NCBI GenBank assembly: GCA_017552475.1
Contig: JAFZPY010000126.1
Span: 126 to 64,125, forward strand
DNA length: 64,000 nucleotides
Direction of reading: 5' to 3'
Source: Bacteroidales bacterium
Lineage (GTDB): Bacteria > Bacteroidota > Bacteroidia > Bacteroidales > UBA932
Part shown: piece after piece, positions 16,311 through 44,664 of the stretch
Layout of the letters: each line of letters begins with the position of its first letter
Position numbering within the stretch: position 1 is the first letter of the stretch
The notes under the pieces: model-generated
Told to the model about the DNA's origin: nothing
Seen by the model: the letters and a program-made list of their open reading frames with translations, nothing else
The model's database searches: none
Translations under genes and position numbers: made by a program

Positions 16311-17702
16311 TTAACTTTTCACAAGCTTGTACGCAGGAACCAGAAGTTTCATGATAACCCATGCAACAAGATAGGCAAGACCGCAAAAACAGAATAAAAT
16401 GAAGTAGCCGGCCGGCTTTCCTTCAAATCCAAGGAAGGAAAAAGCGGAGCCCTGCACACCAGCCCAGGTAAACAAGTTACCAGCCACCTTCTGGACAATC
16501 ATGGAGCCTATCCCTCCGGCCATGGTCCCAATTCCCGTTATGGAGGCCACGGCGCTGCGAGGGAACATATCTCCAATGGTTGAATAAATATTGGCGCTCC
16601 AGGCCTGATGTCCCGCCCCGGCGAAGCCAATGAGCACCGCCGGCCACCAGGGGCTATACATTCCAAGAGGCTGTGCTGCAAGGGCGACAAGTGGGAAAAA
16701 TGCAAAAAGCAGCATTGCAATCATACGGCCGGCATAGGGATGCATTCCTTTCTTTTCAACAAAGAACTTGGGAAGATAGCCTCCGAAAAGCGAGACCACG
16801 GTCACAATGACGTACAAGGTAAATATGAGGCCCTGCCCCAGGGAGGACGATGCAGGCGCATCAAACTGATCCTGGAAGTAGGCCGGTGCCCAGAACAGGA
16901 AGAACCACCATACGCCATCAGTAAGGAACTTGCCGACAATAAAACTCCAGGTCTGCCTGTACATGAAACACCTGAAGAATGGAACAGGTCTCTCTTCAAC
17001 AGGCAATTCCGCCGGATCCGAATCATCCTGACGGATATACTCCAGCTCGGCTTTGTTTACATGCCTGCTCTTTTCCGGCTTGTCATACGCAAACTGCCAC
17101 AAGAACATCCAAAGAAATCCCAGAGCGCCAATGATGATGAACGCCCACTCCCAACCAAGCTGCTTTGCCAATGGCGGAATCATAAGAGGGGCGGACAATG
17201 CGCCCACGGAGGCACCGGCATTGAAAACGGACGTCGCAAAAGCCCGGTCCTTTTTCGGGAAATACTCCGCTGTGGTCTTAATGGCTGCAGGGAAGTTACC
17301 GCTCTCACCCAAAGCCAGAATGCCACGGCACAAGAGAAACAGATAAACGCTGACCGTTGACGCGGCCAAAGCCCCACGGGCAATCCAGTCCGTCGCAACG
17401 CCACATCCGGCATGCAGCACAGCGCCGAATGACCATACGCCAATCGCGATAAGATATCCTTTCCTGGTCCCCATCCAGTCCACGAACTTCCCTGCAAACA
17501 GGCTGAACAGTGCATAGAAGATTGAGAACAGGGCGGTAACAGTACCGTAGTCGGCGTCGGTCCACCCAAAATGCGGGGCAATGAATTCCTTGTAGGTCAG
17601 AGACAATACCTGACGGTCAAGGTAATTGACCGTAGTCGCCACAAAAAGTAACGAACAAATCCACCACCGCCAGTTGGTCATCAGTTTCTGTTGTGTACTC
17701 AT
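16311..17702 (-). CDS. exuT: MFS hexuronate transporter
   Basis: RWWICSLLFVATTVNYLDRQ, GESGNFPAAIK, KFLTDGVWWFFLFW. Confidence 0.9.
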   Translation of the reverse strand: MSTQQKLMTNWRWWICSLLFVATTVNYLDRQVLSLTYKEFIAPHFGWTDADYGTVTALFSIFYALFSLFAGKFVDWMGTRKGYLIAIGVWSFGAVLHAGCGVATDWIARGALAASTVSVYLFLLCRGILALGESGNFPAAIKTTAEYFPKKDRAFATSVFNAGASVGALSAPLMIPPLAKQLGWEWAFIIIGALGFLWMFLWQFAYDKPEKSRHVNKAELEYIRQDDSDPAELPVEERPVPFFRCFMYRQTWSFIVGKFLTDGVWWFFLFWAPAYFQDQFDAPASSSLGQGLIFTLYVIVTVVSLFGGYLPKFFVEKKGMHPYAGRMIAMLLFAFFPLVALAAQPLGMYSPWWPAVLIGFAGAGHQAWSANIYSTIGDMFPRSAVASITGIGTMAGGIGSMIVQKVAGNLFTWAGVQGSAFSFLGFEGKPAGYFILFCFCGLAYLVAWVIMKLLVPAYKLVKS

Positions 17703-17705
17703 TGG

Positions 17706-19112
17706 TTAGAAATCAAAGTAGCGCTTAGCGTTATTGTAGCAAATATCTTCCACCATCCTGCCGATGAAGTCCAGCTGGGATTCCGGGAGTTTCCCATCTT
17801 CAATGTCTTTTCCGAGCATGTCACAAAGTATGCGTCGGAAGTACTCATGACGGGGATAGGAAATAAAACTGCGGCTGTCAGTGAGCATTCCCACGAAGCG
17901 GGAGAGAAGGCCCAGACTGCTCAGGGAATCCATCTGGCGACGCATTCCCACCTCGTGGTCCATAAACCACCAGCCGCTGCCGAACTGCATTTTCCCGGGG
18001 ACAGAGCCATCATTGAACGTATAAGCCATAGCCATCATGACATCATTATCCTTGGGATTAAGACAATAAAGAATGGTCCTGGCAAGTTTGTTCTCCTGTA
18101 CCAGGCGGTCAAAGAATCGGTGTCCTGCCGATGCAATATTCAAATCATGAATAGCGTCAAATCCAGTGTCGGCACCAATCTCGGCAAACATCCGGGTATT
18201 GTTATTTCGTATGGCGCCAATGTGGAATTGCTGTGCCCACCCGGCCTCGGCATCCATTACAGCCTGATCGTGAAGGAATGCACTGCGGAACTTTTCCAGT
18301 TCGCCGGCATCGGGAGCGACTCCTTGCAACACCTTCACAAAAATGGATTCTATTTCGGACTCTTTATATGGGGCCGAACAGAAGTTCTCAAGGCCATGGT
18401 CAGACAGTTTACAGCCGTTGGCGGCAAAATAGTCATGGCGCTTCTGAAGGGCCTCACGAAGCTCAGAGTAAGAGCCAATGGACATTCCGGCGGCCTCTTC
18501 CAGACGCCGGATATACTGCCTGTAAGATGACGGACGCTCAACAGCCATGGCACAGTCCGGGCGCCAGGCAGGAATAATCCTGGTGCCAAAAGGATTTGCC
18601 GCAATCATCTTGTGATAGCGCAGGTCATCAGCCGGATCGTCGGTGGTACACACGACTTCCACGTTAAACTTGCGGATGAGCGCCTGTCCCCGGAACCCCG
18701 GCAATGCAAGTTTTGCATTGCATTCCTCAAATATTTCCCGCGCAGTAGAAGGGCCCAGCAGTTTATCAATCCCGAATACCCTTGAAAGCTCAAGATGCGT
18801 CCAATGATACAGCGGGTTACGCATAGTATAGGGAACTGTTTCGGCCCATTTCTCAAACTTCTCCCAGGAAGACCTGCGACCGGTGATGTACTCCTCCGGG
18901 ACCCCATTAGCCCTCATTGCACGCCACTTATAATGATCCCCTCCAAGCCAAAGTTCCGTGATATCACGGAACCGGATGTTCTCCGCAATTTGACGGGGCG
19001 ACAGATGGCAATGATAATCAATGACCGGCATCTTCTCCGCATGCTCATGATAAAGCGTGCGGGCCGTCTCCGTCCCGAGCATGAAATCAGGGTTGATGAA
19101 GGCCATATCCAT
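17706..19112 (-). CDS. uxaC: Glucuronate isomerase
   Basis: IDYHCHL, GGDHYKWRAMR, CTTDDP, GWWF, GMLTDSRSF.SY.RHEYFRR. Confidence 0.97.
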   Translation of the reverse strand: MDMAFINPDFMLGTETARTLYHEHAEKMPVIDYHCHLSPRQIAENIRFRDITELWLGGDHYKWRAMRANGVPEEYITGRRSSWEKFEKWAETVPYTMRNPLYHWTHLELSRVFGIDKLLGPSTAREIFEECNAKLALPGFRGQALIRKFNVEVVCTTDDPADDLRYHKMIAANPFGTRIIPAWRPDCAMAVERPSSYRQYIRRLEEAAGMSIGSYSELREALQKRHDYFAANGCKLSDHGLENFCSAPYKESEIESIFVKVLQGVAPDAGELEKFRSAFLHDQAVMDAEAGWAQQFHIGAIRNNNTRMFAEIGADTGFDAIHDLNIASAGHRFFDRLVQENKLARTILYCLNPKDNDVMMAMAYTFNDGSVPGKMQFGSGWWFMDHEVGMRRQMDSLSSLGLLSRFVGMLTDSRSFISYPRHEYFRRILCDMLGKDIEDGKLPESQLDFIGRMVEDICYNNAKRYFDF

Positions 19113-19774
19113 TATGCTTTAAACCAACCGATACACTTCCTGCAGAGAACGGATATGGAATCCCAATCCCCCGCCTGTATTATTTCCTTAGGGAAAAGCT
19201 TTGAGCCCATACCGACGGCCGTCACACCTGAACGCGCCCAGGCTGCCAGATTCTCCTCAGTGGGCTCGACGGCTCCGGTCGCCATCAGCATGGCCCAAGG
19301 AAGCGGAGCCAGGACATTTTTCACAAAGTCCGGTCCGCCGACCGTGCCTGCCGGAAAGACTTTTATCAAATCACAGCCGAGCTCCATGGCATGTACAATC
19401 TCCGTCACCGTACCACAACCGGGACTGTACGATACGCCACGGCGATTGGCCAGGGCAGCCACGTCTTCGACCATGCATGGAGAAACCAGGAAATCGGCTC
19501 CCATCTGTAAATACAGCGAGGCGGTATGCGCATCCAGAATAGTCCCGGCTCCCAATGCCATCCCGGGGCAATCCTTCCGTACAAACGCCGCCACCTCATC
19601 AAACACCTTATGGCATCCGTCTCCGCGGTTCGTAAACTCAAAAGCCCGGATGCCGCCGTCATAGCAGGCTCTCACCACCTTTCTGGTGAGTTCCACATCA
19701 TTATTGCAGAACACCGGAACAATGCCGGTATTGCGAATGATATCAAGTGTATCTATCTTACTGAATTTTGCCAT
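19112..19774 (-). CDS. eda: KDPG/KHG aldolase
   Basis: FEFTNRG, GAGTILD, KVFPA, MATGAV. Confidence 0.93.
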   Translation of the reverse strand: MAKFSKIDTLDIIRNTGIVPVFCNNDVELTRKVVRACYDGGIRAFEFTNRGDGCHKVFDEVAAFVRKDCPGMALGAGTILDAHTASLYLQMGADFLVSPCMVEDVAALANRRGVSYSPGCGTVTEIVHAMELGCDLIKVFPAGTVGGPDFVKNVLAPLPWAMLMATGAVEPTEENLAAWARSGVTAVGMGSKLFPKEIIQAGDWDSISVLCRKCIGWFKA

Positions 19775-19776
19775 AA

Positions 19777-20814
19777 TTATCGTGAAACGCGGCCGGATCC
19801 GCCGTTTTTAATAAGTTTTTCCACTTCAGCCGTTGTAACCCGGTTGTAGTCACCAAAAACAGTATGTTTAAGAGCCGATGCAGCCGCTGCGAATTCTATT
19901 GCTTCCTGATCGGTATCATATGTTAACAATCCATACAGAAGCCCTCCCATAAAGGAATCTCCAGCGCCCACACGGTCCACTATATGGGTAATATCATAAC
20001 GACGCGACTGCCACAAAGTCGAGCCGTCATACAAAACACCTCCCCACGTGTTGTGGCTGGCATTGATGCTGCCGCGCAGAGTAACAGCCACCTTGCGGCA
20101 ACGCGGGAAGCGCTCCATAAGCTGACGGCATACGCTGACAAAAGCACTCTGGTCAATCTCGCCTCCGGCCTTTTCCGCATCAAAGCCCTCCGGCTTAATG
20201 CCAAATTCTTTCTCGGCATCCTCTTCGTTGCCAAGAATAAGATCGCAACCGGCTACAAGGGAAGGCATAACCTCCGATGCGTTCTTTCCATAACGCCATA
20301 GCTTCTCACGGTAGTTAAGGTCGCAGGAAACTTTCACGCCCATTTCATTGGCTGCCTGAATAGCCTCCCTGCACGCGTCCGCAGCCCCTTGAGACAGGGC
20401 CGCTGTGATACCCGTCCAGTGAAACCAGTCCGCGCCTTCAAGCACTTTGCGCCAATCTATCATGCCCGGGAGGATTTCTGAAATAGCGCTATGGGCGCGA
20501 TCATATACCACCTTGGAGCCACGGGCGACAGCGCCGTTCTCCAGATAATAAATTCCCATGCGTTCCCCACCCCGGATAATGCCGTCAACGTTGACGCCTA
20601 GGGCTTTAAGCTCCCCCACGCACGTCTCGGCAATTTCATTTTGGGGAAGACGGGTGACAAAATGGGCCTCAACTCCATAATTAGCGAGAGAAACGGCCAC
20701 GTTGGCCTCTCCTCCGCCAAAATTCACATCAAACTGCCGGGCCTGGGAGAAGCGCAAATACTCCGGAGGAGAAAGCCGGAGCATTACCTCACCGAATGTA
20801 ACTACTTTTGACAT
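19777..20814 (-). CDS. kdgK: 2-keto-3-deoxygluconate kinase (PfkB family)
   Basis: [33 protein letters not shown]. Confidence 0.93.
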
Positions 20815-21977
20815 AATATCTTTGAAAGAGCATATTCAATACCTCTCAGCTCGGCAAGCGAGCGGAGACGTCCATAACAAGAATATCCGGGATTGGATTT
20901 CCGGCCCAGGTCATCGCACATCTGGTGGCCATGATCAGGTCGAAGATATATATTGAACCTGCGCCTTTGCTCCACTTCAAGCATGGCCTTCATCATATCG
21001 CAGACAGAGACATCTCCTTCAAGCAGATTCGCTTCATAGAAATTGCCGTCAGCGTCACGCTTGGTGGAGCGTAGATGCACAAAGTCTATGCGGTCGCCGA
21101 ATTCGCGCATCATGGCCGGGCAGTCATTGTCAGCCCGTACGCCAAAAGAGCCCGTACACAGATTCAGGCCGTTGGCCGGGCTGGGGACAGCAGCGACGAG
21201 ACGGCGGAAATCTTCAGCCGTGGACATGATACGGGGAAGACCCAGAATAGGGTATGGAGGGTCATCCGGATGAATCACCATACGTGAACCCACCTCCTCG
21301 CAGACCGGGCATACCTGCTGCAGAAAGAAAATGAGATTGTCGCGCAGCTGTTCTGCATCTATGTCTTTATAGCGATCCAGTTCCTTCTGGAACTGTTCCA
21401 GAGTGAAGCTCTCCTCGCTGCCGGGGAGTCCGGCAATCATATTACGGGTCAGGACCTGTATTTCAGAGGGAGACATCGCCTGATGACGGGCCTTGGCACG
21501 TGCAATTTCTTCCGAAGTATAGTCATCCCCGGCGCCGGGCCTTTTCAGAATATACAGGTCGAAAGCCATGAAGGCGGCTTTCTCAAAGCGGAGGGCCAGG
21601 GAGCCGTCGGGCATCTCGTATGAAAGATCCGTACGGGTCCAGTCCAGAACCGGCATGAAGTTATAGGTTATGACATGAATGTCACATGCTGCAAGGTTCC
21701 GGACAGATTGTTTGTAATTTTCGATATAATGGAGGTAATTCCCTTCGCGGGTTTTGATGTGCTCATGAACAGGGACGCTCTCGACCACGCTCCATACAAG
21801 GCCTTTGGAAGCACATTCATCCTTGCGTTTCTGTATTTCATCCACGGTCCACACTTCCCCGTTGGGAATATGGTGAAGAGCAGTCACAATATCAGTCACT
21901 CCCGCCTGCCGGATATTTTCCAGCTTCACGGGGTCGCCTGGGCCATACCAGCGCCAGCTTTGTTTCATCATGTACAT
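20802..21977 (-). CDS. uxuA: Mannonate dehydratase
   Basis: [30 protein letters not shown]. Confidence 0.97.
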
Positions 21978-21982
21978 AAGCC

Positions 21983-22801
21983 TTAGATGCTGAATGTGTT
22001 AAACCCGCCGTCAACGGGAGCGATAGTGCCAGTGACGCCCTTGGAAGCGTCGGAGGCCAGATAATGAAGAGTCCCTGTCAGCTCATCTGGTTCAAGGAAG
22101 CGGCCGAAGGGGGTATGGGAAAGAATCTTGTGGGACCGGTCGGTGAGAGAGCCGTCAGGATTGGTGAGAAGGCTTCTGTTCTGGTTGGTCAGGAGAAAAC
22201 CCGGAGCGATGGCGTTGACGCGGATTCCTTCCCCGAATTTAAGAGCAAGCTCACCGGAAAGCCACTGCGTCCAGCTGGCCATACCGGCTTTGGCTATGCC
22301 GTACCCGGCGACGCGAGTGAGCGGGCGGAAAGACGACATGGAGCAGAAATTGATTATGACTCCTTTGCCCTGAGCCACCATTGGTCCTATGAAAACCTTT
22401 GTTGGGATGACCGTTCCGAAAATATTCAGCTCACAGACGCGCTTCATTGCATCTATATCCAGGTCGGCGATGGTCTGGTCCGGCTGCACGTTGGCCGGGC
22501 CCATGTTGCCCCCGGCGGCATTCATAAGAATGTCAATGGTGCCATAGGCTTTGATGATATCACGGAGATTATCCTTCAGCACTTCCTCATCAAGCACATT
22601 GGTCGGGAGGAACAATGCCTCTCCCCCGTCTGCTTTAATCTCCCCGACCAGTTTCTCTCCAATCCCGCGGGCGCGCTCCAAATCCAGGAGAACGACTTTA
22701 CAGCCCTGGGAAGCAAAATATCTTACAATGGTAGCACCCAGAACTCCACAAGCTCCGGTCATCACCACCACCTTGCCTTTGATGTCAAAGAGTTGATTCA
22801 T
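21983..22801 (-). CDS. uxuB: D-mannonate oxidoreductase (SDR family)
   Basis: [33 protein letters not shown]; adjacent to uxuA. Confidence 0.85.
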
Positions 22802-22802
22802 A

Positions 22803-25349
22803 TCATTTTTTCATCTTTAATTGCAGATGCCTCCGGTTCTTGACCAGATAGACCATGCATCCGCTGTTGTCTTCACGGAGAAGCGGCAAATCCACTTTTT
22901 CCTCCCGATCCAGCCATAACTCGGCATCCACGCCTTCAGGAATATCCAGCGAAATGATGCTACGGCCTTTTTTTCTCAGAGATTTGAAATGGACAGGCCC
23001 TTTCAGGGTCCAGACATCAAACTCCGCCTGCTCCAGGCCGGCCGGTTGCGGCCGGATTTTAATCAGGGAACCGTCGGAGGCAAGCGGAACAATTCCGGCT
23101 ATTCCCTGGCTAAGTGCAATCAGCGGCATGACGGCGCAATGACTCCACTGCGAAGTATTGTCCGGCTGCGCGTCGAAAAACTCTTCCAATGTGTTATTCT
23201 CCCAGACGGAGCGCATGCCTCCCCAGCGTGTGCGAAGGCTTTCAAGGACCACATCCATCCTTCCGTACTTCGCAAGGGCCCACATTGGCCACACAAGGTT
23301 GCACGGATAGGAAACGCCCAGATTTTCAGGCTGGTTCACCAGAATATCCAGACATTCCGTATACTCACCGCCGGGGCACATGTCATACAGGAGGGCCGTT
23401 GCAAGCGACCGGTCGCAGTAGCGGTCTCCCCCGTCCTCTTCCCTCCAGGGAAGATTGAGTACAAAGACTTTCTTGTCGCTGTCCCAGAAGCGCCGTACGC
23501 AGGCCTCAAGGATGTCATCGCCATAAGAAAGCGCATCTTCCTTAAGCTCCGGAGCGCCAAACACATCGCAGAGCGGCGCCAATGCATAACGACACATGGC
23601 AGCCACGTAGAGGTTCAGGGCAAGCTGCTTTTCACGGTCATTGCGATATGCTTTCTGATCCATGTAGACCGAACACATGCCCAGCCCTACGGATGGAATC
23701 AGGTGTTCTTCCCGGTCAGTCAGCGTCTTGAGATAATTGTAGAACTTGACCAGCCTCGGAAAGACCTCCATCAGGTTTTCCTTTTTCCCAGTGTACATGT
23801 AATAGTTGTAAACATCGAAGACAAATCCGACGCTATGATCGAGAATCGGGCCCCAGGCCGTCAATTGCAACTGCCGTTCAAAAATTCTTACCATCCTGTC
23901 CCACCCAGGCCAGCTGTCCATAAAGAAGCCTTCCAGGGAGCTGCCCTGGCTAAAGGTATTGATATACCGGGCAAGCAGGCTGTCCGGGCGGAAGAACTGA
24001 TACAGGGCATGTATCTGATGACCGCCATCACCGCTATACTGCTGGCGCTCACGGGCCATACCGTCAACAATGGTTTCCTGTGCGCAGTTATTTATTGTAT
24101 TTACGGTAGCGTCTATCACCCTCTGAAGGGTGTCGTCAGACACCTTGATCTCAGGCCGCACCGTCCAGGGATAGGTTCTCCTCCGCATACCGATGTCCGA
24201 GAGGGTGACCGGTCGGTCAAAGCCCCTGATAAGGAATTGTACCCAGCGATAACTTTCGAAATCGAAAGTCTCAAAGCGGTTGATTCCCTCGCGGCAGATA
24301 AAGCGCGTCCACGAATGGAAATGCGAATTCAGGATGGCGGCATGCCCGGGTTCGTGCGCTTCATGTACCAGCATCTCGATGATGGTACCCTCCGGCGCAT
24401 CTATTGTGAAATAGGGAAAGCCTACACCCTGTTCGTCGAATGCAAAAACATACGAGACCGTCTTCCCTCCCTGCGGTTCAATCACAAATACGTCATCCTC
24501 CATACCAGGCTCCAGCACCTTCCACTCATCAACGGAATAAGCAGTCTCATCCATTGCCAAGTCAAAGAAATCCTCAACCGGGACCTTCCAGTCCACCAGC
24601 ATTGTCTCCCTTAGTTTTGGATGACTTATCTTTTCTTCTCTGAGCAAGGGAACGGAGCGCTGCCGCAATTCGACATCGTCGCGGTTATTACGGCTCTCCC
24701 AAAGGTAGTCGCGGTACTGATTGCAGACAGAGGGTTTGTCTCCCCTTCCGTACGCACGTGCAGAAAGCCATTGGCCGTCCATGGCATAATCCGGATCAGT
24801 CCAGCCTAAAGGATAGGTTCTTGCATCGAAGCACTCCTGAAGGGAACGCAGGAACCATCTCTTGTACTTGCCAGGCTCCCAGCTGCGGGCCACTTGACAG
24901 TGCCAGGAAGTATCTGTAACTATATTCTCACCAGCTACATTTACATTCATCAACAGACCCGGCTTACCAATAGGATCGGTCCCGTCACCGCTGCCGTAGA
25001 AACATACTTCGACCGCAATCGTATTGCCCCCTACCCTGAGATAGGGAGCAATATCGACAGGGTCTGCCTCCTGCCATCTTGGGTCGGATGGGGCGGGCCC
25101 CCACTGTACCCTCTCCCCGTTGACGAAGAGACGATACCGGCTGTCCGCCACAATCCATCCCCGGGCCTCATCTGGCAATACTCTAACCTCAAAATCCTTT
25201 CGAAAGAGTACGAAGGTGTTCTGGGGAGTCCTCGTCGAGGGATACCAAATCCATCTGGCGGGCTGAAGGTCCAGCACATCACCGTAGTCTTTCGCGTGCA
25301 GAGCGGCACACAAAAGCAGCGAGGCGGCAAGAGTGAAGAGTTTTCTCAC
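22803..25349 (-). CDS. Alpha-L-rhamnosidase-like GH78 family protein (exported)
   Basis: Rhamnosidase N-domain (ADSRYRLFVNG), DGMARERQQYSGD, SQWSHC. Confidence 0.75.
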   Translation of the reverse strand: MRKLFTLAASLLLCAALHAKDYGDVLDLQPARWIWYPSTRTPQNTFVLFRKDFEVRVLPDEARGWIVADSRYRLFVNGERVQWGPAPSDPRWQEADPVDIAPYLRVGGNTIAVEVCFYGSGDGTDPIGKPGLLMNVNVAGENIVTDTSWHCQVARSWEPGKYKRWFLRSLQECFDARTYPLGWTDPDYAMDGQWLSARAYGRGDKPSVCNQYRDYLWESRNNRDDVELRQRSVPLLREEKISHPKLRETMLVDWKVPVEDFFDLAMDETAYSVDEWKVLEPGMEDDVFVIEPQGGKTVSYVFAFDEQGVGFPYFTIDAPEGTIIEMLVHEAHEPGHAAILNSHFHSWTRFICREGINRFETFDFESYRWVQFLIRGFDRPVTLSDIGMRRRTYPWTVRPEIKVSDDTLQRVIDATVNTINNCAQETIVDGMARERQQYSGDGGHQIHALYQFFRPDSLLARYINTFSQGSSLEGFFMDSWPGWDRMVRIFERQLQLTAWGPILDHSVGFVFDVYNYYMYTGKKENLMEVFPRLVKFYNYLKTLTDREEHLIPSVGLGMCSVYMDQKAYRNDREKQLALNLYVAAMCRYALAPLCDVFGAPELKEDALSYGDDILEACVRRFWDSDKKVFVLNLPWREEDGGDRYCDRSLATALLYDMCPGGEYTECLDILVNQPENLGVSYPCNLVWPMWALAKYGRMDVVLESLRTRWGGMRSVWENNTLEEFFDAQPDNTSQWSHCAVMPLIALSQGIAGIVPLASDGSLIKIRPQPAGLEQAEFDVWTLKGPVHFKSLRKKGRSIISLDIPEGVDAELWLDREEKVDLPLLREDNSGCMVYLVKNRRHLQLKMKK

Positions 25350-25361: not shown

Positions 25362-26840
25362 TTAAAATCCCGGATTCTGCCACATGACCGTCTTGTCATT
25401 GTAGTTGGCGATCTCCTGACTGGGAATCGCATAGAGATAACGGTCGGTGGTAGCCATCTTATACAAGCCGTTTTCGTTCTCGGCACGTCTGAGGAATGCG
25501 TCCATCACTTCTACAGCCTTGCCCCAGCGCACGAGGTCGAGCCAGCGAAGGCCTTCGAAAGCGAACTCAACGCGGCGCTCCTGCATGATAGCCTCGCGGA
25601 ATGCCGCCTGGTTGGGAGTCGTTGTCGCATCAAGGTCAGGCAGACCTGCACGTGAACGGATCTTGTTGATGTACAGGAAAGCATCGCCCGCTGCCTGATA
25701 ACCGGCCTCGTTAAGGCACTCGGCATACATCAGAAGGACATCGGAATATCTGACTACGGGCATATTGATAGCGAAATCATTGTTATTCACGGGAGTAGCC
25801 GTGTAATGAAGCCACTTGCTTATGTACCAGCCGGTTCTGGGAGCGTCGCCAACTATGACGTCGGCAACGACGGACTGGTCCTTGCGCAGGTCGCCCGGTT
25901 CGTACGCATCAATCAGGTCTGTTGATACTTCCAGGAATGCGGAAGCGCCGGTGAAGGGAGTGAGCGTTCCATGATAGCCGTCGGGCATGAAAGAGTTCGG
26001 GAGGATGTTGCCCTCGCCGAGGCCGCCGTTGGTGAACTGTATCTCCCATACACGCTCTTTGGAGTTGTTGAAAGCGTCATCGAAGCAATCTTCATAATTC
26101 TCGGCCATCTCATATTTCCGGGAAGTGATGATGTCGCTAAGCAGCGGCTTGGCATCGGAGAACTTGGACTGGAACATGTAGAGACGGGCGAGTCCGGCCT
26201 CGGCGGCGTACTTGGTGATCCTGCCGATGTTCTTGCCGGTCCATTCAGCGGGAAGCAGGGCAATAGCAGCTTTGTAGCCTTCTGCAGCGAAGGCAAAAGT
26301 CTCTTCCTGGGTAGAGCGTGCGATGGTCCTGGTCTCGACAGCAGTGTACTCCTTGTCAAGGATGGGGACGCCGCCGAAGGATGTTCCCAGATGATAATAT
26401 GCCCATGAACGAAGCGCCAGGGCTTCACCCTTGATAGCATCCTTTGCCGAGGCATCCGCGAATTCGATATCATCGATGCGTGAGATAATGGCATTGGCGC
26501 GTGACACCACGATGAAGAGTTCCTGCCATAAATCCTGGATATACGAGCCTGTGGCGTCGTCAAGGAACTTGTCGTTCTGGTCGACATAACCGGCTCCGAC
26601 TTTAGTGTCGTCGCTTCGGGTGATAGCCATGCGGAACACTCCGCCAAGATTGTTATAGAGGTCCTGCTGCTGGGCATATACACCGGCTATGGCTACTTCA
26701 AAGTCAGATGCCGTTTTGTAGAAAGCGCCCACGGAATACTGTGACTGCGGTTCCTCGGAAAGAAACTCGTCGCAGCTGGCGACAGCAAACGAAACGATGC
26801 AGAGGACCGGGAGTATATAGGTTCTGATATTCTTTTTCAT
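25362..26840 (-). CDS. susD: SusD/RagB family lipoprotein
   Basis: Lipobox VASC, RYSDVLLMYAE, ERRVEFAFEGLRWLDLVRW. Confidence 0.95.
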   Translation of the reverse strand: MKKNIRTYILPVLCIVSFAVASCDEFLSEEPQSQYSVGAFYKTASDFEVAIAGVYAQQQDLYNNLGGVFRMAITRSDDTKVGAGYVDQNDKFLDDATGSYIQDLWQELFIVVSRANAIISRIDDIEFADASAKDAIKGEALALRSWAYYHLGTSFGGVPILDKEYTAVETRTIARSTQEETFAFAAEGYKAAIALLPAEWTGKNIGRITKYAAEAGLARLYMFQSKFSDAKPLLSDIITSRKYEMAENYEDCFDDAFNNSKERVWEIQFTNGGLGEGNILPNSFMPDGYHGTLTPFTGASAFLEVSTDLIDAYEPGDLRKDQSVVADVIVGDAPRTGWYISKWLHYTATPVNNNDFAINMPVVRYSDVLLMYAECLNEAGYQAAGDAFLYINKIRSRAGLPDLDATTTPNQAAFREAIMQERRVEFAFEGLRWLDLVRWGKAVEVMDAFLRRAENENGLYKMATTDRYLYAIPSQEIANYNDKTVMWQNPGF

Positions 26841-37570: not shown

Positions 37571-38436
37571 GTTATTTTCTTCAGTTCTTCCAGGCGCTCT
37601 GCGGACAAAGGCTCCTTGTCCTTGAGGACATTATCCATCCCAAGCGATTCGTACTTTCCGAATCCAAGCGTATGAAAGCCCAGTAATGTGTAGGTTAGTT
37701 TATCTCGTACGGGTTGCAGCAGGGAGCAAATCGCTTTTATCTCATCTTCGTTGTCATTCACGCCCGGAATGACAGGAGTCCTGACACAAAGCGCAGCCCC
37801 ACGTCCTGCAAGTTTTTTCAAATTATTCAATATCACTACGTTCCCTATCCCCGTCCACTCCCTGTGCTTCTTGTCATCGGATAGCTTAAAGTCACACACC
37901 CACAGGTCGGTGTACGGTATCAGTTCTTCGATGATCTTCCATGGGAAAGATGCATTCGTCTCGATGGCGGTATGAAGACCGTTTCGTTTGCAAATAAGAA
38001 GGAATTCCTTGACAAAACCGGCCTGCATCAGAGGCTCTCCTCCCGAAATGGTCACGCCTCCGCCGGATTCCCCGAAATAAGGCAGGTCTTGCTCTATTTC
38101 GACCCAAAGTTGCTCTGGAGAGACTTCTCGTCCGACCATTGAAAGAGCGCCGCTGCAACAAACCTGCGAGCATAGGCCGCAAGACGTGCATTTTTCCCTG
38201 TCGATCATCATTGAGCCATCCCCCTCTTCAATCACCCGTCCGGGGCAGACATGAAGGCATGACAGACAATGGATGCATTTCTCCTTTATATATTGGAGCT
38301 GAGGCTCACGAATCCACGTTTCAGGGTTGTGGCACCACTTGCAACGCATATTGCAGCCCTTCATAAAAACCACTGTTCTTATGCCCGGGCCATCGTGTAT
38401 TGACATGCGTTGAAGTGCCGTAATCAAACCTTTCAT
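37555..38436 (-). CDS. Glycyl-radical enzyme activating enzyme (radical SAM with ferredoxin insert)
   Basis: HDGPGIRT, CNMRCKWCHNPE, two CxxCxxCxxxC motifs, SGGEP. Confidence 0.95.
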   Translation of the reverse strand: MKGLITALQRMSIHDGPGIRTVVFMKGCNMRCKWCHNPETWIREPQLQYIKEKCIHCLSCLHVCPGRVIEEGDGSMMIDREKCTSCGLCSQVCCSGALSMVGREVSPEQLWVEIEQDLPYFGESGGGVTISGGEPLMQAGFVKEFLLICKRNGLHTAIETNASFPWKIIEELIPYTDLWVCDFKLSDDKKHREWTGIGNVVILNNLKKLAGRGAALCVRTPVIPGVNDNEDEIKAICSLLQPVRDKLTYTLLGFHTLGFGKYESLGMDNVLKDKEPLSAERLEELKKITWINC

Positions 38437-38457
38437 TGTGGATAGTTTTCTTCACTG

Positions 38458-38537
38458 CAAATCTATGGTTTTTTAGAACTAGTTCAACATCACATATTTA
38501 TTGAAGAAATGATATTCTTTACCCTATTCCGACATCG
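38458..38537 (-). promoter_or_regulatory. Promoter (-7 TAGATTTG) with upstream 19-bp candidate AraC site
   Basis: TAnnTTTG at 38465-38458; TTACCCTATTCCGACATCG at 38519-38537 shared with 44755-44773. Confidence 0.65.
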
Positions 38538-38544
38538 GCCGGAA

Positions 38545-39408
38545 TCACACGATTTTCTGGTTCAGTTTCCGATAGTCGGAGGGGGTCTGACCATAGCGCT
38601 GGTTAAACTGCCTGTAGAAGTAGGCGATACTCTCGAAACCACAGGCGTATGCAATCAGTTTAATAGGGATACTGGTGAGAATAAGCTCATCGGCCGCATA
38701 CTTGATGCGGATGTCATTCACAAACTCGGTAAGCGTCTGACCGAAAACCGTCTTCACCACCCGGTTTACATAGTCCGCATTCCTCTCGCACAGACTGACG
38801 AACGATGTGATTCCATGCCGGAAGTGTTCGGTATTGTTATACGCCTTGATTGCCGATATGAGCCATGACGGGGCCGACAGATAGTCACGCTGGGTCTCAA
38901 GATCCCGGATATTACGGAAAATAAACAGCAGCAGGCTGTCCATCTGCATGTACGAACGCTTGAAACGCATTGCCTCCTCAGCCCGTGACGAGAACCGCTT
39001 GACAAGGTTGTCGGACAGCTTGATCTGATACGGAAGCGGACTTTTCGACCAGAAATATTGATCAGAGCTGGCAAAATAACGGTCATGGAAGTAATCAAGC
39101 GTCTCTTTGGGGAAGGCTATATTGACAATGGTGAGGTTCTTACCGTTTGAAGAGAAAGTATGCTGGTCCTCGGGACGGATCAGGACCATGTCATTAGCTT
39201 TGACGACTACTTTATTTCCGTTGATATGATGGGTCCCTTCACCATTCTCGACCCAGAATAGCTCGGCGTAATCGTGAGAGTGGTACGAAATATCATACCT
39301 GGTCGTAATAAACACCCTGGCGATATGGAAGACCTCTTCCTTGGCCAGGAAATCATCCAGCTTGAAAAACTTGCAGCCGGAAGGCTCTGTGCGTAATACT
39401 GTCCTCAT
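38545..39408 (-). CDS. AraC-family transcriptional regulator (cupin sensor + double HTH)
   Basis: YHSHDYAELFWV; IAYACGFESIAYFYRQFNQRYGQTPSDYR. Confidence 0.95.
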   Translation of the reverse strand: MRTVLRTEPSGCKFFKLDDFLAKEEVFHIARVFITTRYDISYHSHDYAELFWVENGEGTHHINGNKVVVKANDMVLIRPEDQHTFSSNGKNLTIVNIAFPKETLDYFHDRYFASSDQYFWSKSPLPYQIKLSDNLVKRFSSRAEEAMRFKRSYMQMDSLLLFIFRNIRDLETQRDYLSAPSWLISAIKAYNNTEHFRHGITSFVSLCERNADYVNRVVKTVFGQTLTEFVNDIRIKYAADELILTSIPIKLIAYACGFESIAYFYRQFNQRYGQTPSDYRKLNQKIV

Positions 39409-39414
39409 AAATGT

Positions 39415-42400
39415 TCATCGTTCCGGCGTATCGCTCATATCAAAAACGAGTTCGCCACCTTTTAATATTTCTTCAGCGGGAATCTTGAAACCATCCACAC
39501 TCTTTCCGTTGAGTTTTACTTCCCGGACATACATATTCTTTCTGGAGGCATGGCGAGCCTTGATGACCAGCTCCCGGCCTCTTCCATACCGCCCGCCCAG
39601 ATGAATGACAGTCTTCCTGAACAAAGGACTGCCAATCTCATACGCAGGCTCGGCCGAACAACCTCCGTCCATCTGGAAGAGCCCCAGCGAAGCCATCACT
39701 GCCCAGGCACTCATCTGGCCCTGATCCTCATCGCCCAAATAGGCATTCGCCACACCATAGCCATAATACCTCTCCAAAATGGACCGGCTCCAACGCTGCG
39801 TATTCCACGGCTCCCCGGCGTAATTGAAAAGGAAAGCGAAGTGCATACTCTGCTGATTGCCATGCACTACGGGATGATCCCAATACTGGTCATTCGGGGC
39901 ATTGTACCTCCAGCCCTCATCCTGTGAAAAGCCCCACGACAGCCGCCCGGTGAAACGCTCCTTTCCGATAAAGTCCACCAGCGCCGGTACATCCTGAGGC
40001 ACGAAGAACGTAAGCTGCCATGCATTACCCTCGACGTACTGTTTATTCGCCCCGCTCCAGAAAGGATCAAAGTCTGCCAGAAAGGCCCCTTCACTGTCTT
40101 TCATATGGCAGAAGCCGTCATCGTCAATGGCATGTTTCCACCAATATCCCCTGTCATTAAACACATTGTAGGTCACAGTGTCACCAAGGCTCTTAGCCAA
40201 TTGTCCGACGGCCCAGTCATCAAAGGAATACTCCATCGTATTGGAGAAGCGCCCCTTATCAAAGGGGACGTACCCATATCGGAGATATGCGACCAGATCA
40301 CGGTTACCAGCAAATCCCTTGTACACCTTCCTGCCCGGAGTGGTCTGCATTTTGACAACAGCTTCCAACGCTTTCTGCCCGTCGAAGTCCCGGATTCCCA
40401 TCTGCCAGGCACCGACAATCAGCGGAATCTCATGCTCGGCCACCATCACCGGAATGTAGTTCAACCCGGCAGGTCCCTTTCCCAGCCAGCCGTTTGCATC
40501 GTATAGTGCAAGCTGAGTCCGGACAAACCGGCCCGACCACTCTGGCGTAACAAGATTCCACAGCTGGTTCAGATTCCAGAACGTGTTCCAGAAAGCATCG
40601 CTGCTGAGCATCACATCCTTTGATGGATCCGCGACACGACGGACCACCCCGTCCGTTGACACCCATTGTCCGTTTATGTCGCTCCAAATAGTGCGTCCGC
40701 AAAGGCTGCGGTACATATTATTATAGAACCGCTGTTTCTCCAGGCGGTTGGTCGTCTCAATCTCTATGCGTCCCAGAAGTTCGTTCCAGACCGTCTTCTG
40801 ATTTGCCACGACAGCATCAAAGTCCCATCCGAAAGGCTCGGTCAGTTCTTTTCTTAGGTTCTCCCTCGCATTTGCGATGCTCACGGGAGAAATCGCAGAC
40901 CTTACCTGCACAACGGAGCTCGATGAGGTATCAAAGCGTACGGCTATCAACTCTCCGCCCCTGTAGTACGTAACGCTACTGACCGGACGGTCGAATTCCA
41001 TCACATAATGAATCGTATAATCCTGTTCCGCATCATTTCTCCACACACGCTCCGACCTCTGATGGGAATAGCCCTCTATGCATGTAGGGCTCACCTGATT
41101 GCAGGCCACGTCCACCACTTTGAAGTCATACTCAGCCTGTGGATGAAGTTCAATAAGGATGCGGTTGTCAGCGCTATAGCGTGGAAAAGTGAAACGCTCC
41201 AGACCGCAGCGAGTCGTAGCAGTGAGCTCAGCCAAGATGCCATAATCAGTGAGCAGAGCCGAATAATATCCTATTTCCGCCACTTCAGAGCTCTTGTCAA
41301 TACGGGATCTGTATCCCTCATCAGGTCTCCTCTCATCGCCGACATCCGTTTTCATCGGACCATTGGCAGGCATGACACCCAATCCCCCGAGCGTCCACTC
41401 ATGGACATGGCTGAAGCAACCGATATTCTCCAGCGACGGCTGGTATCCTGCCTGCCAGCCCTGATTCTGGTTGTCAGGACTCAGTTTCACCATACCGAAA
41501 GGCATCCATGGTCCCGGCGCGATCATCCAGCGTGAATGAGCCGTCCCAATCTGGGTATCCACATAGCCGGCGTATGTCTGCTGCAGCTGCGGAGAACGGT
41601 CCACTTCGCCCTCTTCCACAAGCCGGTCGCCGACAAACACCTGATATCGGCTGGTTTTCATCTCCTTCACAACGGGCATGGGGGCTTCAAACTGATAACG
41701 TCCCTTCTCCAACTTCTCTGAGAAAATCTTGCAGCCGTCAAGTTTCACCTTAAGAACAGGTTCTCCGGCCAGATGCTCAACGTCCACGATCAACGGCTGA
41801 CTGTCCCCCACTTCGTAATCTGCCGCCCGGACATCACGGATAAAAGCTTCCTTGGGAACGATGACCTCTACAGGCTCAAGACCGACCAGTGCAACGCGGT
41901 CAAACTTAATCCATGACCCTTCAAGGATACTAATCGTGACCACGTTACCACCCTCACGAAGGACATCCTGCTCCAGCGGAAGCAAAAGCGATTTTCCGGC
42001 TGGCAACTGATATTTACGCAAGTAGCCATTGACACTCAGCTTCACCAGAGGAGGCACTTCCTTCGAGAAATCAGCAAGGTCCAACTCCAGGTCATATCCA
42101 TCCCCACGAGGAAGTTCTCCCAGGGTGAAGAGAATATTCACTTCATGCGTACGCACCCCGGACGCCCAGCCAGTACCGCCCCACTCATCCGCCGGCCCCG
42201 GCATGATATAAGGAAAATCATTCTTTAAATCAGAATGGCCAACGGCAAAAAACTTATCCTCATATCCAAAATCCTTTTCAAGGAACTTATCATAGCCATC
42301 CGGAGCCAGAGCAAACTCAGCTGCCGAGCCATCCTTCCTTCCCAGCTCCCACACGGTTACACCCGGTGCCTCATTCACAAGCGACGGAGGGCAGTCAGAG

Positions 42401-44664
42401 GGCTGGCTACCCCATGCGGGATTAGGCGTATCCCCCATGATAAACGCCAGCGTGCCGCCATTCATTATATCCTCATGGGAAATGTAATTCTTCGAATAAG
42501 GTTTCCCGTTCAGCATGGCTGACTGGATGTAACGGTTATCCGCGCCGCCCTTTGACGTGACTATGGAAAACCTTCGGCCATTCTCCAGACTAAGAACAGC
42601 TTCATCAAACTGAGGCGAACCTATGATATAATAAGGACTCCCGGGGCACACCGGATAGAATCCAAGACTGGAGAAGACAAACCATGCGCTCATCTGTCCG
42701 GCATCATCATTCCCGGCGAGACCTCCGGGCACATCGTCATACTGGCTGTCAAGAATAGTCCTCACCCTGTCCTGCGTCTTCCACGGTTCTCCGGCATAGT
42801 TATACATATAGGCGACCTGATGGCAGGGTTCATTCCCATGCCAGTACAGATTCCCGTCAAAGAGAGAATCCAGTTTAAAGACATATTGTTCCTTCCCTCC
42901 CATCTGGCACATGAGGCCATACGGATCGTGGGGAGCATACCAGGTGTAATGGCAGGGAGCACCTTCCGTTATAAAGCGGGAAAGGACTTCCGGAGACGTT
43001 CCTTTCAAAAAAGTTCCATCCTCATGTCGTCCGCCGGCATACCCCGTCTCCGGATCGATGACATTGCGGTAATATAGGCTGCGCTCATGCAGCACATCAT
43101 AATCTTCCGCCTCACCGAGTTTAAGCGCCACCTGGGAAAGGACGAAATCATCGAACGCATACTCCATCGTACGGGATGTCTGCTCCTGAGTGTGAAAAGC
43201 CTCTTTCACCGGATCTTCCAGCGGGATGTAACCATACCGGAGGTAGCTCTCCAATGCCCGCCGCCCCATTCCATTATTATATTCTTCCTCGCTACAGGGA
43301 GACAGGAAGGCGTTTTTCCTCATGCCCTCGTAGGCAGTGCGAATATCAAAATTCCTGATTCCCTTGATATAGGCATCACCGATTGCGGCTATGCAGTGAT
43401 CCCCGATCATTGCCGATGTATAACTGTTCCAGCAAGGGAAAATTGGGAGCCACCCGCCCTGGGCGTATTTATCTGCCAGCGATTGCATCATCTCGCCGCT
43501 CCGTGCAGGAGATGTCAGCACAAGCAGGGGGTGAAGAGCCCTGTAAGTGTCCCACATGGAGAAATCGTCATAGTGCGGGACGGGACTCTGAAGGATTGGC
43601 GCTCCGCTTGCAAACGCTGGATACCGGCCATCCACATCGCTGATGACGCGCGGCAGGAATGAAGCCCGATACAAGGAGCCATAGAACTTCCGGAGAAGAT
43701 GCCCGTCGTCCGAAGAGACTTTTATTTTGGAAAGATGCTTCTCCCACACACCGGTCAGATATTTTCTGACGCCGTCGAAATCATACCCGGGAATCTCGGC
43801 ATCCAGGTTCCTTTCAGCGCCCTCAATATCGGTGAAAGAACTGGCGGCTTTGATGACAACAGGCTTGTTGTCCGAGTGGCGCTTAAACTGTACATAGAGT
43901 CCAATCCCCTGTGCGCCGCCTATGGATGTGCCGCCTCTGATGACCGTATCCCGCGAATAGACTCCGAAAGTCTCCAGTTCTTCGATAAACCGGATGACAA
44001 AGTATCCGCTATATCCGGCAGGTTGCCCCCATCCCTGATAGATACGGTGGATGGGATTATATCCCCGGATTTCCTTACGTAACGTATCCAGTTCTATATA
44101 ACCGACCCCCTCATCGCTGTTGGGATTGACAATCAGGCATGCCGGTCTGTCTTCCGGGTAGGTGAAACGGAAAATGGCACTTCGGGAGCGTCCGGTCATC
44201 TCGGCACGTATGCCCGATTGGTGAAGGTCCACGGAATAATATGCGGGCGTAGCCACTTCGCTCTCATGACGGAATGGCGTGGCCCTCTCAGCAGGCAGAA
44301 GGTTCTCCACCCCGACTGAAGGGAAAAGCGTCATGGAGCCATAGTCCTGAGTGCAGCCACCGACAATCCAATGTGAATTACGGAATCCCTGAAAGAGGGT
44401 GTCGCGATAGTAATAGGGAGCCACGCATTTCCTCTCAGTATCAGAGGTCTGAGGAGTCCAGAAATTCATTCCGTTGGGTTCCAGCACCGCCGGCAGGGTC
44501 TGTCCATATTCCTCGCTCCCCTTTCCATACCGGCCATCAGTGCATACCACATTTGCATCAGTACCCACACGTGTATCCACGTATGAGGTCAGACACGGAG
44601 TCGCAAATTCAGAGCAGCCGGCCAGGCAGCACAAAGCGGCAGATACAGACAGAATTATCCTCAT
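39415..44664 (-). CDS. Tandem GH92-GH92 alpha-mannosidase-like lipoprotein
   Basis: Two full GH92 modules (SMWDTYRA/GNDDAGQMSAW and DAFWNTFW/GDEDQGQMSAW) joined near 42375; lipobox LAGC. Confidence 0.9.
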   Translation of the reverse strand: MRIILSVSAALCCLAGCSEFATPCLTSYVDTRVGTDANVVCTDGRYGKGSEEYGQTLPAVLEPNGMNFWTPQTSDTERKCVAPYYYRDTLFQGFRNSHWIVGGCTQDYGSMTLFPSVGVENLLPAERATPFRHESEVATPAYYSVDLHQSGIRAEMTGRSRSAIFRFTYPEDRPACLIVNPNSDEGVGYIELDTLRKEIRGYNPIHRIYQGWGQPAGYSGYFVIRFIEELETFGVYSRDTVIRGGTSIGGAQGIGLYVQFKRHSDNKPVVIKAASSFTDIEGAERNLDAEIPGYDFDGVRKYLTGVWEKHLSKIKVSSDDGHLLRKFYGSLYRASFLPRVISDVDGRYPAFASGAPILQSPVPHYDDFSMWDTYRALHPLLVLTSPARSGEMMQSLADKYAQGGWLPIFPCWNSYTSAMIGDHCIAAIGDAYIKGIRNFDIRTAYEGMRKNAFLSPCSEEEYNNGMGRRALESYLRYGYIPLEDPVKEAFHTQEQTSRTMEYAFDDFVLSQVALKLGEAEDYDVLHERSLYYRNVIDPETGYAGGRHEDGTFLKGTSPEVLSRFITEGAPCHYTWYAPHDPYGLMCQMGGKEQYVFKLDSLFDGNLYWHGNEPCHQVAYMYNYAGEPWKTQDRVRTILDSQYDDVPGGLAGNDDAGQMSAWFVFSSLGFYPVCPGSPYYIIGSPQFDEAVLSLENGRRFSIVTSKGGADNRYIQSAMLNGKPYSKNYISHEDIMNGGTLAFIMGDTPNPAWGSQPSDCPPSLVNEAPGVTVWELGRKDGSAAEFALAPDGYDKFLEKDFGYEDKFFAVGHSDLKNDFPYIMPGPADEWGGTGWASGVRTHEVNILFTLGELPRGDGYDLELDLADFSKEVPPLVKLSVNGYLRKYQLPAGKSLLLPLEQDVLREGGNVVTISILEGSWIKFDRVALVGLEPVEVIVPKEAFIRDVRAADYEVGDSQPLIVDVEHLAGEPVLKVKLDGCKIFSEKLEKGRYQFEAPMPVVKEMKTSRYQVFVGDRLVEEGEVDRSPQLQQTYAGYVDTQIGTAHSRWMIAPGPWMPFGMVKLSPDNQNQGWQAGYQPSLENIGCFSHVHEWTLGGLGVMPANGPMKTDVGDERRPDEGYRSRIDKSSEVAEIGYYSALLTDYGILAELTATTRCGLERFTFPRYSADNRILIELHPQAEYDFKVVDVACNQVSPTCIEGYSHQRSERVWRNDAEQDYTIHYVMEFDRPVSSVTYYRGGELIAVRFDTSSSSVVQVRSAISPVSIANARENLRKELTEPFGWDFDAVVANQKTVWNELLGRIEIETTNRLEKQRFYNNMYRSLCGRTIWSDINGQWVSTDGVVRRVADPSKDVMLSSDAFWNTFWNLNQLWNLVTPEWSGRFVRTQLALYDANGWLGKGPAGLNYIPVMVAEHEIPLIVGAWQMGIRDFDGQKALEAVVKMQTTPGRKVYKGFAGNRDLVAYLRYGYVPFDKGRFSNTMEYSFDDWAVGQLAKSLGDTVTYNVFNDRGYWWKHAIDDDGFCHMKDSEGAFLADFDPFWSGANKQYVEGNAWQLTFFVPQDVPALVDFIGKERFTGRLSWGFSQDEGWRYNAPNDQYWDHPVVHGNQQSMHFAFLFNYAGEPWNTQRWSRSILERYYGYGVANAYLGDEDQGQMSAWAVMASLGLFQMDGGCSAEPAYEIGSPLFRKTVIHLGGRYGRGRELVIKARHASRKNMYVREVKLNGKSVDGFKIPAEEILKGGELVFDMSDTPER

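Follow-up and report, generated by a model that had tools for sequence, protein, structure and literature searches.

What does a glycyl radical enzyme (GRE) do at the head of an operon for glycan breakdown? GREs are one of the main sources of new anaerobic chemistry in gut microbes, and the question is raised by a stretch of 64,000 nucleotides from a Bacteroidales bacterium (assembly GCA_017552475.1, contig JAFZPY010000126.1, positions 126 to 64,125 of the forward strand), which we call the window and number from its first letter. Here an activase, a GRE, a small cupin and a RhaT-family carrier precede susC, susD, glycosidase and uronate genes on the minus strand. An earlier note, made from the letters alone, had proposed that the radical enzyme leads the operon of a polysaccharide utilisation locus (PUL) and serves a modified sugar of the target glycan, perhaps 4-O-methylglucuronate. 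The first proposal is supported, with carrier and cupin alongside the enzyme; the second is not. Where the note would have screened uronic, deoxy, O-methyl and anhydro sugars, comparative data narrow the range of substrates to manno-configured monosaccharides, and the conserved cassette of this oxygen-sensitive enzyme, found with mannosidases and importers across phyla, points to an undescribed anaerobic step in the breakdown of mannose-type sugars.

A tryptophan in the cysteine loop

The glycine loop of the enzyme reads R-V-T-G690-F and fits the superfamily motif RVxG[FWY] (Pfam Gly_radical, 54.6 bits). This form, with conservative variants only, is kept in 53 of 54 aligned relatives, the remaining row being gapped there. 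A structural model (predicted local distance difference test, pLDDT, 86.8) has the ten-stranded barrel fold and matched about 50 GRE structures at TM scores of 0.75-0.83 and 16-22% identity. Foldseek cannot separate the GRE families, because all those resembling pyruvate formate-lyase (PFL) match the model at a TM score of about 0.8.

The cysteine loop reads G-C371-N-W373, and Cys371 aligns with the catalytic cysteine of glycerol dehydratase, CutC, PflD and 2f3o. All GRE eliminases and isomerases keep a glutamate two residues past that cysteine, hydrogen-bonded to the substrate and known as the CXE motif (PMC13450708). The group includes glycerol dehydratase (GD), propanediol dehydratase (PD), HypD, CutC, IslA, HpsG, YbiW, PflD and HplG. 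The window enzyme lacks the motif: in alignments to solved GREs, Trp373 falls on the CXE glutamate (Glu435 of glycerol dehydratase), so that the loop has a tryptophan in place of the catalytic glutamate. None of the 54 full-length relatives departs from this tryptophan, their loops all reading G-C-[N/H]-W; across the 54, which come from several phyla, 154 of the 713 positions are at least 98% conserved. Elsewhere in the active site, the conserved His126 corresponds in the alignment to His164 of glycerol dehydratase, the conserved Asp385 to Asp447 and Phe568 to Tyr640, and the Tyr640 region is filled by Phe568 together with Trp570.

Against the PFL2/glycerol dehydratase subfamily model TIGR01774 the enzyme scores 253 bits, where the cut-off is 678, and it falls far under the NCBIfam equivalog cut-offs for HpsG (198 against 1000), HypD (174 against 1100) and CutC (155 against 1050). 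The best characterised or solved relative reaches at most 172 bits, at about 20% identity. These values and the absent glutamate bear out the earlier view that the GRE stands outside the characterised families: judged by sequence, it fits none of them and has a non-canonical active-site loop.

The limits of the clade were drawn from an exhaustive search of 1.8 billion representatives. A family core lies at 38% identity or above and at least 518 bits; around it lies a wider G-C-x-W superclade, whose lowest scores are about 190 bits, and no CXE protein scores above 227 bits. The wider set consists of GREs of about 680-765 aa with the loops GCFW, GCQW, GCPW and GCGW, at 25-31% identity (P0160-P0168, P0183, P0196, P0206), and we know of no characterised member. 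In the literature on GREs with PULs, mannosidases, mannose or anhydro sugars we found neither a characterisation of the G-C-x-W clade nor its recognition as a distinct GRE class, and a 2026 review of GREs includes no member of it (PMC13450708).

Two members of the clade are built or placed unusually. In P0130 (1052 aa) an activase domain is naturally fused to a GRE of the same clade in one polypeptide. P0133 (L078-L081; 38% identical, loop G-C-H-W) lies between a sugar-binding AraC-type regulator and a convergent gene of the sulfite/nitrite reductase family, with a 133-aa open reading frame (ORF) of unknown family after the activase; this distant member may have a different specificity. The surroundings of two other distant members, P0124 and P0129, gave no further clue.

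The cassette and its mannosidase partners

We compared the surroundings of the GRE in 68 loci from a scan of species-representative genomes, using tblastn with the window proteins. The loci come from Bacteroidales, Alistipes, Marinilabiliales, Flammeovirga, Sphaerochaetaceae, Lentisphaeria, Clostridia, Anaerolineales and others. An activase was found in 61 of them, a cupin directly after the GRE in 37, an orthologue of the AraC regulator (39-85% identity) adjoining the activase in 28 and a RhaT carrier in 22, with no change of order, and (AraC)-activase-GRE-cupin-RhaT is the conserved unit. Such a unit fits the earlier suggestion that an imported small sugar meets radical chemistry and a cupin, and the neighbourhoods of the homologues are strongly linked to sugar genes, as had also been supposed.

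De novo clustering of the neighbours, together with Pfam, revealed a recurring partner, an alpha-mannosidase, which belongs to three unrelated families. GH92 enzymes fill this place in Bacteroidota (Bacteroidales and Marinilabiliales); five Sphaerochaetaceae loci have a signal-less, cytoplasmic GH38, accompanied by an ABC importer and a ROK regulator of the NagC type; and Flammeovirga, Labilibaculum and Muribaculaceae have a GH47 with a carrier of the major facilitator superfamily (MFS). A gene of an alpha-mannosidase family lies within 10 kb of the GRE in 40 of 69 loci. For comparison, the whole 2.0-Mb genome of the window's host, which is about 80% complete, holds about nine GH92 catalytic domains in about seven genes.

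Other neighbours also point to manno-sugars. A cupin of the phosphomannose isomerase (PMI) type adjoins the GRE in Clostridia, and in Clostridia and Lentisphaeria a fusion of a TIM-barrel domain (IolE/IolI fold) with an IolG-like oxidoreductase (TIM-GFO) stands beside it. Prolixibacteraceae loci contain a gene of the cellobiose/mannose 2-epimerase family and the Flammeovirga locus a GH130. In Dysgonomonas-type loci (L019, L026, L048) the activase-GRE pair sits inside a cluster resembling those for sialic acid utilisation, which in L026, annotated in full, comprises NanM, two NanA-like lyases, an MFS carrier, SusC/D, a BNR sialidase and a GntR regulator. The lyases would yield N-acetylmannosamine or mannose; no AGE-type epimerase was seen within this type of locus.

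A further neighbour hints that methyl groups may matter to the cassette. A zinc-type MtaA/CmuA-like methyltransferase of the URO-D fold recurs beside the GRE or the accompanying mannosidases, being present in Prolixibacteraceae, in two Bacteroidales loci and on the contig of the distant member P0126 (L017:4776-5882, L044:8916-9944, L029, L035, L062, L065, L068 and the P0126 contig). Its zinc ligands, His-x-Cys...Cys, were judged to be retained in an alignment to 4ay7, and no corrinoid protein was seen nearby.

Gene order, fusion and control in the window

ORF listing and family scans confirmed a single minus-strand run from the double GH92 gene through the MFS gene, comprising:

39415..44664, minus strand: GH92-CBM-GH92 protein, 1749 aa (Pfam Glyco_hydro_92 in two stretches, 980 bits; GH92N in two stretches; a domain like a carbohydrate-binding module, CBM, between them)
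38545..39408, minus strand: AraC-family regulator with a cupin sugar-binding domain (Pfam HTH_18, AraC_binding, Cupin_2)
37555..38436, minus strand: GRE activase, radical SAM, with a ferredoxin-like dicluster insert (TIGR02494, 349 bits, cut-off 174; Pfam Radical_SAM, Fer4)
35429..37570, minus strand: GRE, 713 aa (Pfam PFL-like and Gly_radical)
34995..35411, minus strand: single-domain cupin, 138 aa (no Pfam match; fold from a model and PDB 3d0j)
30070..35007, minus strand: RhaT, GH92N, PA14, GH92 and GH28 in one 1645-aa ORF (Pfam)
26853..30035, minus strand: SusC-like TonB-dependent transporter (Pfam Plug, TonB_dep_Rec_b-barrel, CarboxypepD_reg)
25362..26840, minus strand: SusD-like glycan-binding lipoprotein (Pfam SusD_RagB, SusD-like_3)
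22803..25349, minus strand: distant GH78-like six-hairpin glycosidase of the alpha-L-rhamnosidase type (weak Pfam Bac_rhamnosid; PDB RhaB 2okx, 123 bits)
16311..22801, minus strand: uxuB, uxuA, PfkB-type kdgK, eda, uxaC and an MFS carrier gene (NCBIfam)

The activase stays under every substrate-specific equivalog cut-off in NCBIfam. All the genes that the earlier note had listed are present where it placed them, and the gaps of 35 bp or less that it had claimed after the activase promoter measured 34 bp or less: from the activase onward to the MFS gene, spacings range from -16 to +34 bp, with a 16-bp overlap of the activase and GRE genes and 12 bp between susC and susD. The double GH92 gene is separated from araC by 6 bp, and araC from the activase by 108 bp. 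With adjacent susC and susD and, co-oriented with them, GH92 (three catalytic domains), GH28, GH78-like and AraC genes, the locus is a Sus-type PUL. The GRE genes and susC/D are probably co-transcribed, to judge by the short gaps and the conserved synteny. Near-identical DNA was found in animal and bovine gut metagenomes from several studies.

The most unusual product of the run is the carrier-hydrolase fusion, in which the RhaT-family carrier occupies residues 1 to about 335 and the GH92 domain scores 465 bits to alpha-1,2-mannosidase structures of the BT3990 type. Independent contigs from other studies cross it without indels, one of them, 20 kb long, spanning positions 31243-39600 with substitutions only, and the closest relative, L003, has the same single ORF (1651 aa). 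For these reasons the fusion ORF is genuine and no assembly error; it is common to the window and this closest relative only. In L005 and L016, RhaT, GH92(PA14) and GH28 are separate genes in unchanged order, and the stand-alone GH92(PA14) and GH28 proteins start with lipoprotein signal peptides, which are precisely deleted in the fusion. There the mature GH92 starts a few residues past the carrier's last transmembrane helix, an arrangement that would tether two exo-glycosidases at the periplasmic face of the importer.

The 108-bp gap before the activase and the region before the double GH92 gene share a 19-bp motif:

44755..44773, minus strand: 19-bp motif, candidate AraC operator, upstream of the double GH92 gene (TAnnTTTG element at 44693-44700)
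38519..38537, minus strand: second copy of the motif, upstream of the activase gene (TAnnTTTG element at 38458-38465)

The two copies agree at 17 of 19 positions, a score that none of 300 shuffles reached, and lie about 100 nt before the two start codons and about 55 nt upstream of TAnnTTTG. We searched for that element because we take Bacteroidota promoters to be of the TAnnTTTG type. The motif core, ATGTCGGAATAGNGTAA, recurs in 10 other loci, some from Alistipes and Rikenellaceae, and stands there about 100 bp before an activase or GH92 gene (L002, L003, L013, L024, L032, L061, L063, L066 and L067 among them). It is likely to be the operator of the cassette's AraC regulator, which would then control one regulon of two transcription units. 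Scans with a sigma-70 consensus, which may not be the host's type, gave promoter and terminator counts equal to those of shuffles at 27000-46000; at 13500-27000 they gave 26 promoter-like sites against 11.8 ± 3.3 shuffled, and 21 terminator-like sites against 12.8 ± 3.6. No inference was drawn from either scan.

The run ends in uronate genes. UxaC, UxuB and UxuA form the glucuronate branch of the hexuronate pathway, and the set of this branch (UxaC, UxuB, UxuA, KdgK, Eda) is present in full: UxuB scored 325 bits (cut-off 281), UxuA 569 (200), Eda 309 (275) and UxaC 637 (387), and the PfkB-type KdgK, resembling 2-keto-3-deoxygluconate kinases, stayed under the equivalog cut-offs. Most of the gene names in the earlier note could thus be kept, with the same caveat for kdgK. 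Its exuT could not: this protein, of the galactonate-transporter type, is under every NCBIfam cut-off, so that it can be called only an MFS carrier.

The tail is specific to the window's lineage. By tblastn, not one of the 68 fetched loci has uronate genes next to its GRE. In the closest genome, G001, whose GRE is 84% identical, the probable continuation contig carries the GH78-like gene, uxuB and uxuA, then a convergent GH92, and lacks kdgK, eda and uxaC. In G002 and G003 (77% identity), uxuA lies on another contig and the PUL goes on to a canonical GH78, another AraC gene and an inverted orthologue of the GH78-like gene. This orthologue, at 68-84% identity in the three relatives, belongs to the GRE locus itself in G002 and G003; in G001 it opens the probable continuation contig. 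The simplest reading is that the tail catabolises glucuronate from the same glycan and has nothing to do with the GRE reaction; the link between the two drawn in the earlier note is not upheld.

Two regions border the run. Beyond the MFS gene by 31 bp, a co-oriented ORF with its own promoter-like motif (295 aa, 15392-16279), a Bacteroidota lipoprotein, closes it; a HipA-type toxin kinase gene (14258-15388, plus strand), preceded by a small ORF, converges on this lipoprotein gene (region 13947-16279). Upstream, a co-oriented locus at 44982-57793 encodes two phosphodiester glycosidases of the NAGPA type, one of which is joined to a histidine phosphatase, and is separated from the GRE PUL by a strong terminator hairpin. 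It could serve to expose phosphodiester-linked mannan. In L077, too, a distant homologue of the GRE has a NAGPA gene nearby.

A proposed radical reaction on manno-sugars and its nearest known relatives

The reading that we prefer, with a little more confidence than doubt, is that the locus is a Sus-type PUL for an alpha-mannoside heteroglycan with rhamnose and uronic acid, and that it carries a portable AraC-activase-GRE-cupin-RhaT cassette acting on a manno-configured monosaccharide. Periplasmic exo-alpha-mannosidases, here with GH92 and GH28 tethered to the carrier by fusion, would free this sugar, either D-mannose itself or one closely derived from it, for instance O-methyl- or deoxy-mannose, and the RhaT-like carrier would bring it in unphosphorylated. 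The activase would place a radical on Gly690, and the resulting thiyl radical on Cys371 would take a hydrogen atom from the sugar, probably stacked on the invariant Trp373. An adjacent C-O bond might then be cleaved with His126 as the acid, by loss of water or an alcohol or by ring opening, to give a deoxy-keto sugar that a metal-dependent cupin, where present, would isomerise for general metabolism. Candidate reactions are a dehydration via the anomeric carbon or one beside it, which would make use of the axial 2-OH, and the anaerobic loss of a substituent that cannot be hydrolysed, an O-methyl ether for example. As to the sugar, plain D-mannose and a close derivative of the kind named are about equally likely, each at well under an even chance; other compounds take up the remainder. 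The wider claim that G-C-x-W GREs are a new functional class, carrying out radical dehydration or substituent removal on free manno-configured sugars, we put forward tentatively, at somewhat less than an even chance.

The features of the cupin suit the part of an isomerase that this scheme would give it. Its model (pLDDT 93.4) has PDB 3d0j as top match, at a TM score of 0.90 and 30% identity; the metal site of invariant residues, D43, H45, E50 and H91, is apparently intact; and its language-model features resemble those of sugar ketoisomerase cupins of the FdtA/WxcM type. Neither a KdgF-like role nor one as a small subunit of the GRE was supported by any test, and both were rejected; the predicted GRE-cupin complex, with a score of 0.05, weighs neither way on binding.

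Several observations sit uneasily with a manno-sugar substrate. In about 40% of loci no mannosidase gene stands within 10 kb; although many of those loci lie on short contigs, Alistipes L069, L027 and L031 do not. The Sphaerochaeta, Lentisphaeria, Clostridia and Prolixibacteraceae loci lack the cupin, which therefore is not obligatory. The MtaA-like enzyme could itself handle O-methyl groups, which would leave another role to the GRE. Plain mannose has a cheap kinase/isomerase route, so that the selective reason for a radical enzyme is unexplained, and no dedicated downstream enzymes for a deoxy-keto sugar are found in the cassette. Finally, since the CXE glutamate is absent, the usual elimination by way of a ketyl radical cannot be assumed.

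One alternative is that the GRE is a radical epimerase or isomerase, converting a rare sugar stereoisomer to a common one by abstraction and return of hydrogen, with no elimination. This would explain both the missing glutamate and the lack of dedicated downstream genes; the tryptophan is invariant where a general base is expected, the conserved cassette has neither kinase nor aldolase, and GRE isomerases exist in YbiW, PflD and HplG (PMC13450708). However, these known isomerases keep the CXE glutamate and act by cleaving a C-O or C-N bond; His126, which corresponds to the acid that serves the leaving group in glycerol dehydratase, is conserved; and no residue was identified as a second hydrogen donor. 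We consider such an epimerase or isomerase improbable.

It is similarly an outside chance that the GRE acts on what is left after mannose is removed, for instance a cyclitol or polyol like the myo-inositol in the head groups of mannosyl-inositol phospholipids (the glycosyl inositol phosphorylceramides, GIPCs, of fungi and plants, or the phosphatidylinositol mannosides, PIMs, of actinobacteria). Plant GIPC head groups contain mannose, glucuronate and inositol; the TIM-GFO fusion beside the GRE in Clostridia and Lentisphaeria has inositol 2-dehydrogenase as its top NCBIfam match (99 bits); sugar/inositol-type MFS carriers (PF00083) stand in for RhaT in some loci; and the phosphodiester glycosidase and histidine phosphatase genes flanking the window PUL, with the NAGPA gene of L077, would suit such a substrate. 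Yet 99 bits is far under the cut-off of 355, and pairs of GFO and TIM-barrel proteins are generic sugar enzymes. No other iol genes were seen in the loci, RhaT-family carriers are known for sugars, not cyclitols, and GH47 and GH92 are known for their action on Man-Man linkages.

A diol dehydratase is very unlikely; its substrate would be 1,2-propanediol or glycerol, formed from the rhamnose or fucose that GH78 enzymes set free. The window's lineage has a RhaT-family carrier and GH78-type genes, and the structural match to propanediol dehydratase equals any other; but the CXE glutamate is absent, scores to diol and glycerol dehydratases are only 143-157 bits, the loci contain no microcompartment shell, aldehyde dehydrogenase or rhaABD, and the majority lack GH78. 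We rejected this candidate on its active site, scores and gene context alike.

Slightly less likely still is the proposal in the earlier note that the GRE eliminates methanol from 4-O-methylglucuronate, or otherwise feeds the Uxa/Uxu/KdgK/Eda route. It can call on the uronate genes in the same run, at gaps of 12 bp or less, on the GH28 domain fused to the carrier and on a GH115 alpha-glucuronidase near the B. thetaiotaomicron-type locus L010. That GH115 lies beyond a divergent AraC gene, probably in a neighbouring locus, and the minimal Sphaerochaeta and Flammeovirga loci have no uronate-active enzyme. With uronate genes in none of the 68 loci and only uxuB-uxuA in the probable continuation of G001, the idea is unsupported, and the recurring partner is an alpha-mannosidase instead. 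Moreover, a substituent on O4 of a uronate leaves by ordinary beta-elimination, the established chemistry of lyases, with no need of a radical. This substrate too was rejected.

The weakest candidate, a second PFL co-regulated with the PUL, has in its favour the database name 'formate acetyltransferase' and little credibility otherwise: the loop has a single cysteine and no Cys-Cys pair, TIGR01255 gives 75 bits against a cut-off of 994, and the activase has a ferredoxin insert, which we take to be typical of non-PFL activases. In B. thetaiotaomicron, moreover, deletion of the orthologous gene BT2955, which is off on glucose and 'normally off in vitro', leaves formate production unchanged, whereas deletion of BT4738 abolishes it (PMC8865466), and the PFL paralogue was rejected.

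The manno-sugar reading can be set beside four known systems. The cupin is near-identical in fold and length (138 aa) to CA_C3497 of Clostridium acetobutylicum (PDB 3d0j), a likewise uncharacterised structural-genomics cupin. The B12-independent glycerol and 1,2-propanediol dehydratases share with the GRE the counterparts of His164 and Asp447 and a TM score of about 0.8, but differ in Glu435, which is Trp373 here, and in the microcompartment and aldehyde-processing context that the window locus does not have.

The only characterised GREs acting on sugars are YbiW and PflD, which break a C-O bond in converting 1,5-anhydroglucitol-6-phosphate and 1,5-anhydromannitol-6-phosphate to 1-deoxyfructose-6-phosphate (PMC13450708). 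They were found very recently. The window enzyme resembles them in its PFL-like fold, adjacent activase, catalytic cysteine and glycine loop. It is only about 18-20% identical to them (128-163 bits), and they are about 70-100 residues longer. They have the canonical CXE loop and use its glutamate, whereas the G-C-x-W clade has tryptophan, and they act on sugar phosphates delivered by the phosphotransferase system, whereas the window cassette has non-phosphorylating carriers and no kinase.

The closest system is PUL43 of B. thetaiotaomicron (BT2948-BT2957), described as encoding GH92, GH76, a ConA-like protein, SusD, SusC, a RhaT-family protein, a cupin, a 'formate acetyltransferase', an activase and AraC (PMC4321491). 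Its order, AraC (BT2957), activase (BT2956), GRE (BT2955), cupin (BT2954) and RhaT-family carrier (BT2953), followed by SusC/SusD and GH92, is that of our locus L010, which is labelled B. thetaiotaomicron and has the 988-aa SusC reported for BT2952. L010 is identical to the window at 72% in the GRE, 53% in AraC, 52% in the activase, 54% in the cupin and 47% in RhaT. The window cassette is the PUL43 cassette, and its arrangement has a precedent. The surroundings differ: SusC/D and the glycosidases are not orthologous (SusC 28%, GH92 38%), the AraC gene is divergent where the window's is co-oriented, and PUL43 has GH76 and ConA-like genes and lacks GH28, GH78, the uronate genes and the carrier-hydrolase fusion. 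In 2015 its authors reported that they could identify no glycan that induces it and that BT2949 was inactive on yeast mannan, and they proposed an alpha-mannan-type target, a heteromannan (PMC4321491).

The GRE family is present in Alistipes onderdonkii too, so the clade sits in glycan-harvesting loci of abundant gut and rumen Bacteroidota that include genetically tractable species, this one and B. thetaiotaomicron. Identifying the substrate would give a function to an orphan PUL of a model symbiont, would probably add a new reaction type to the GRE superfamily, and would show how a mannose-type sugar that ordinary enzymes process poorly is handled anaerobically. If our reading is true, the G-C-x-W class would open to strict anaerobes, in gut, rumen and marine sediment alike, a previously unknown route for mannoside-derived sugars, and the orphan PUL43, whose cassette is the nearest known counterpart of the one in the window, would be explained.

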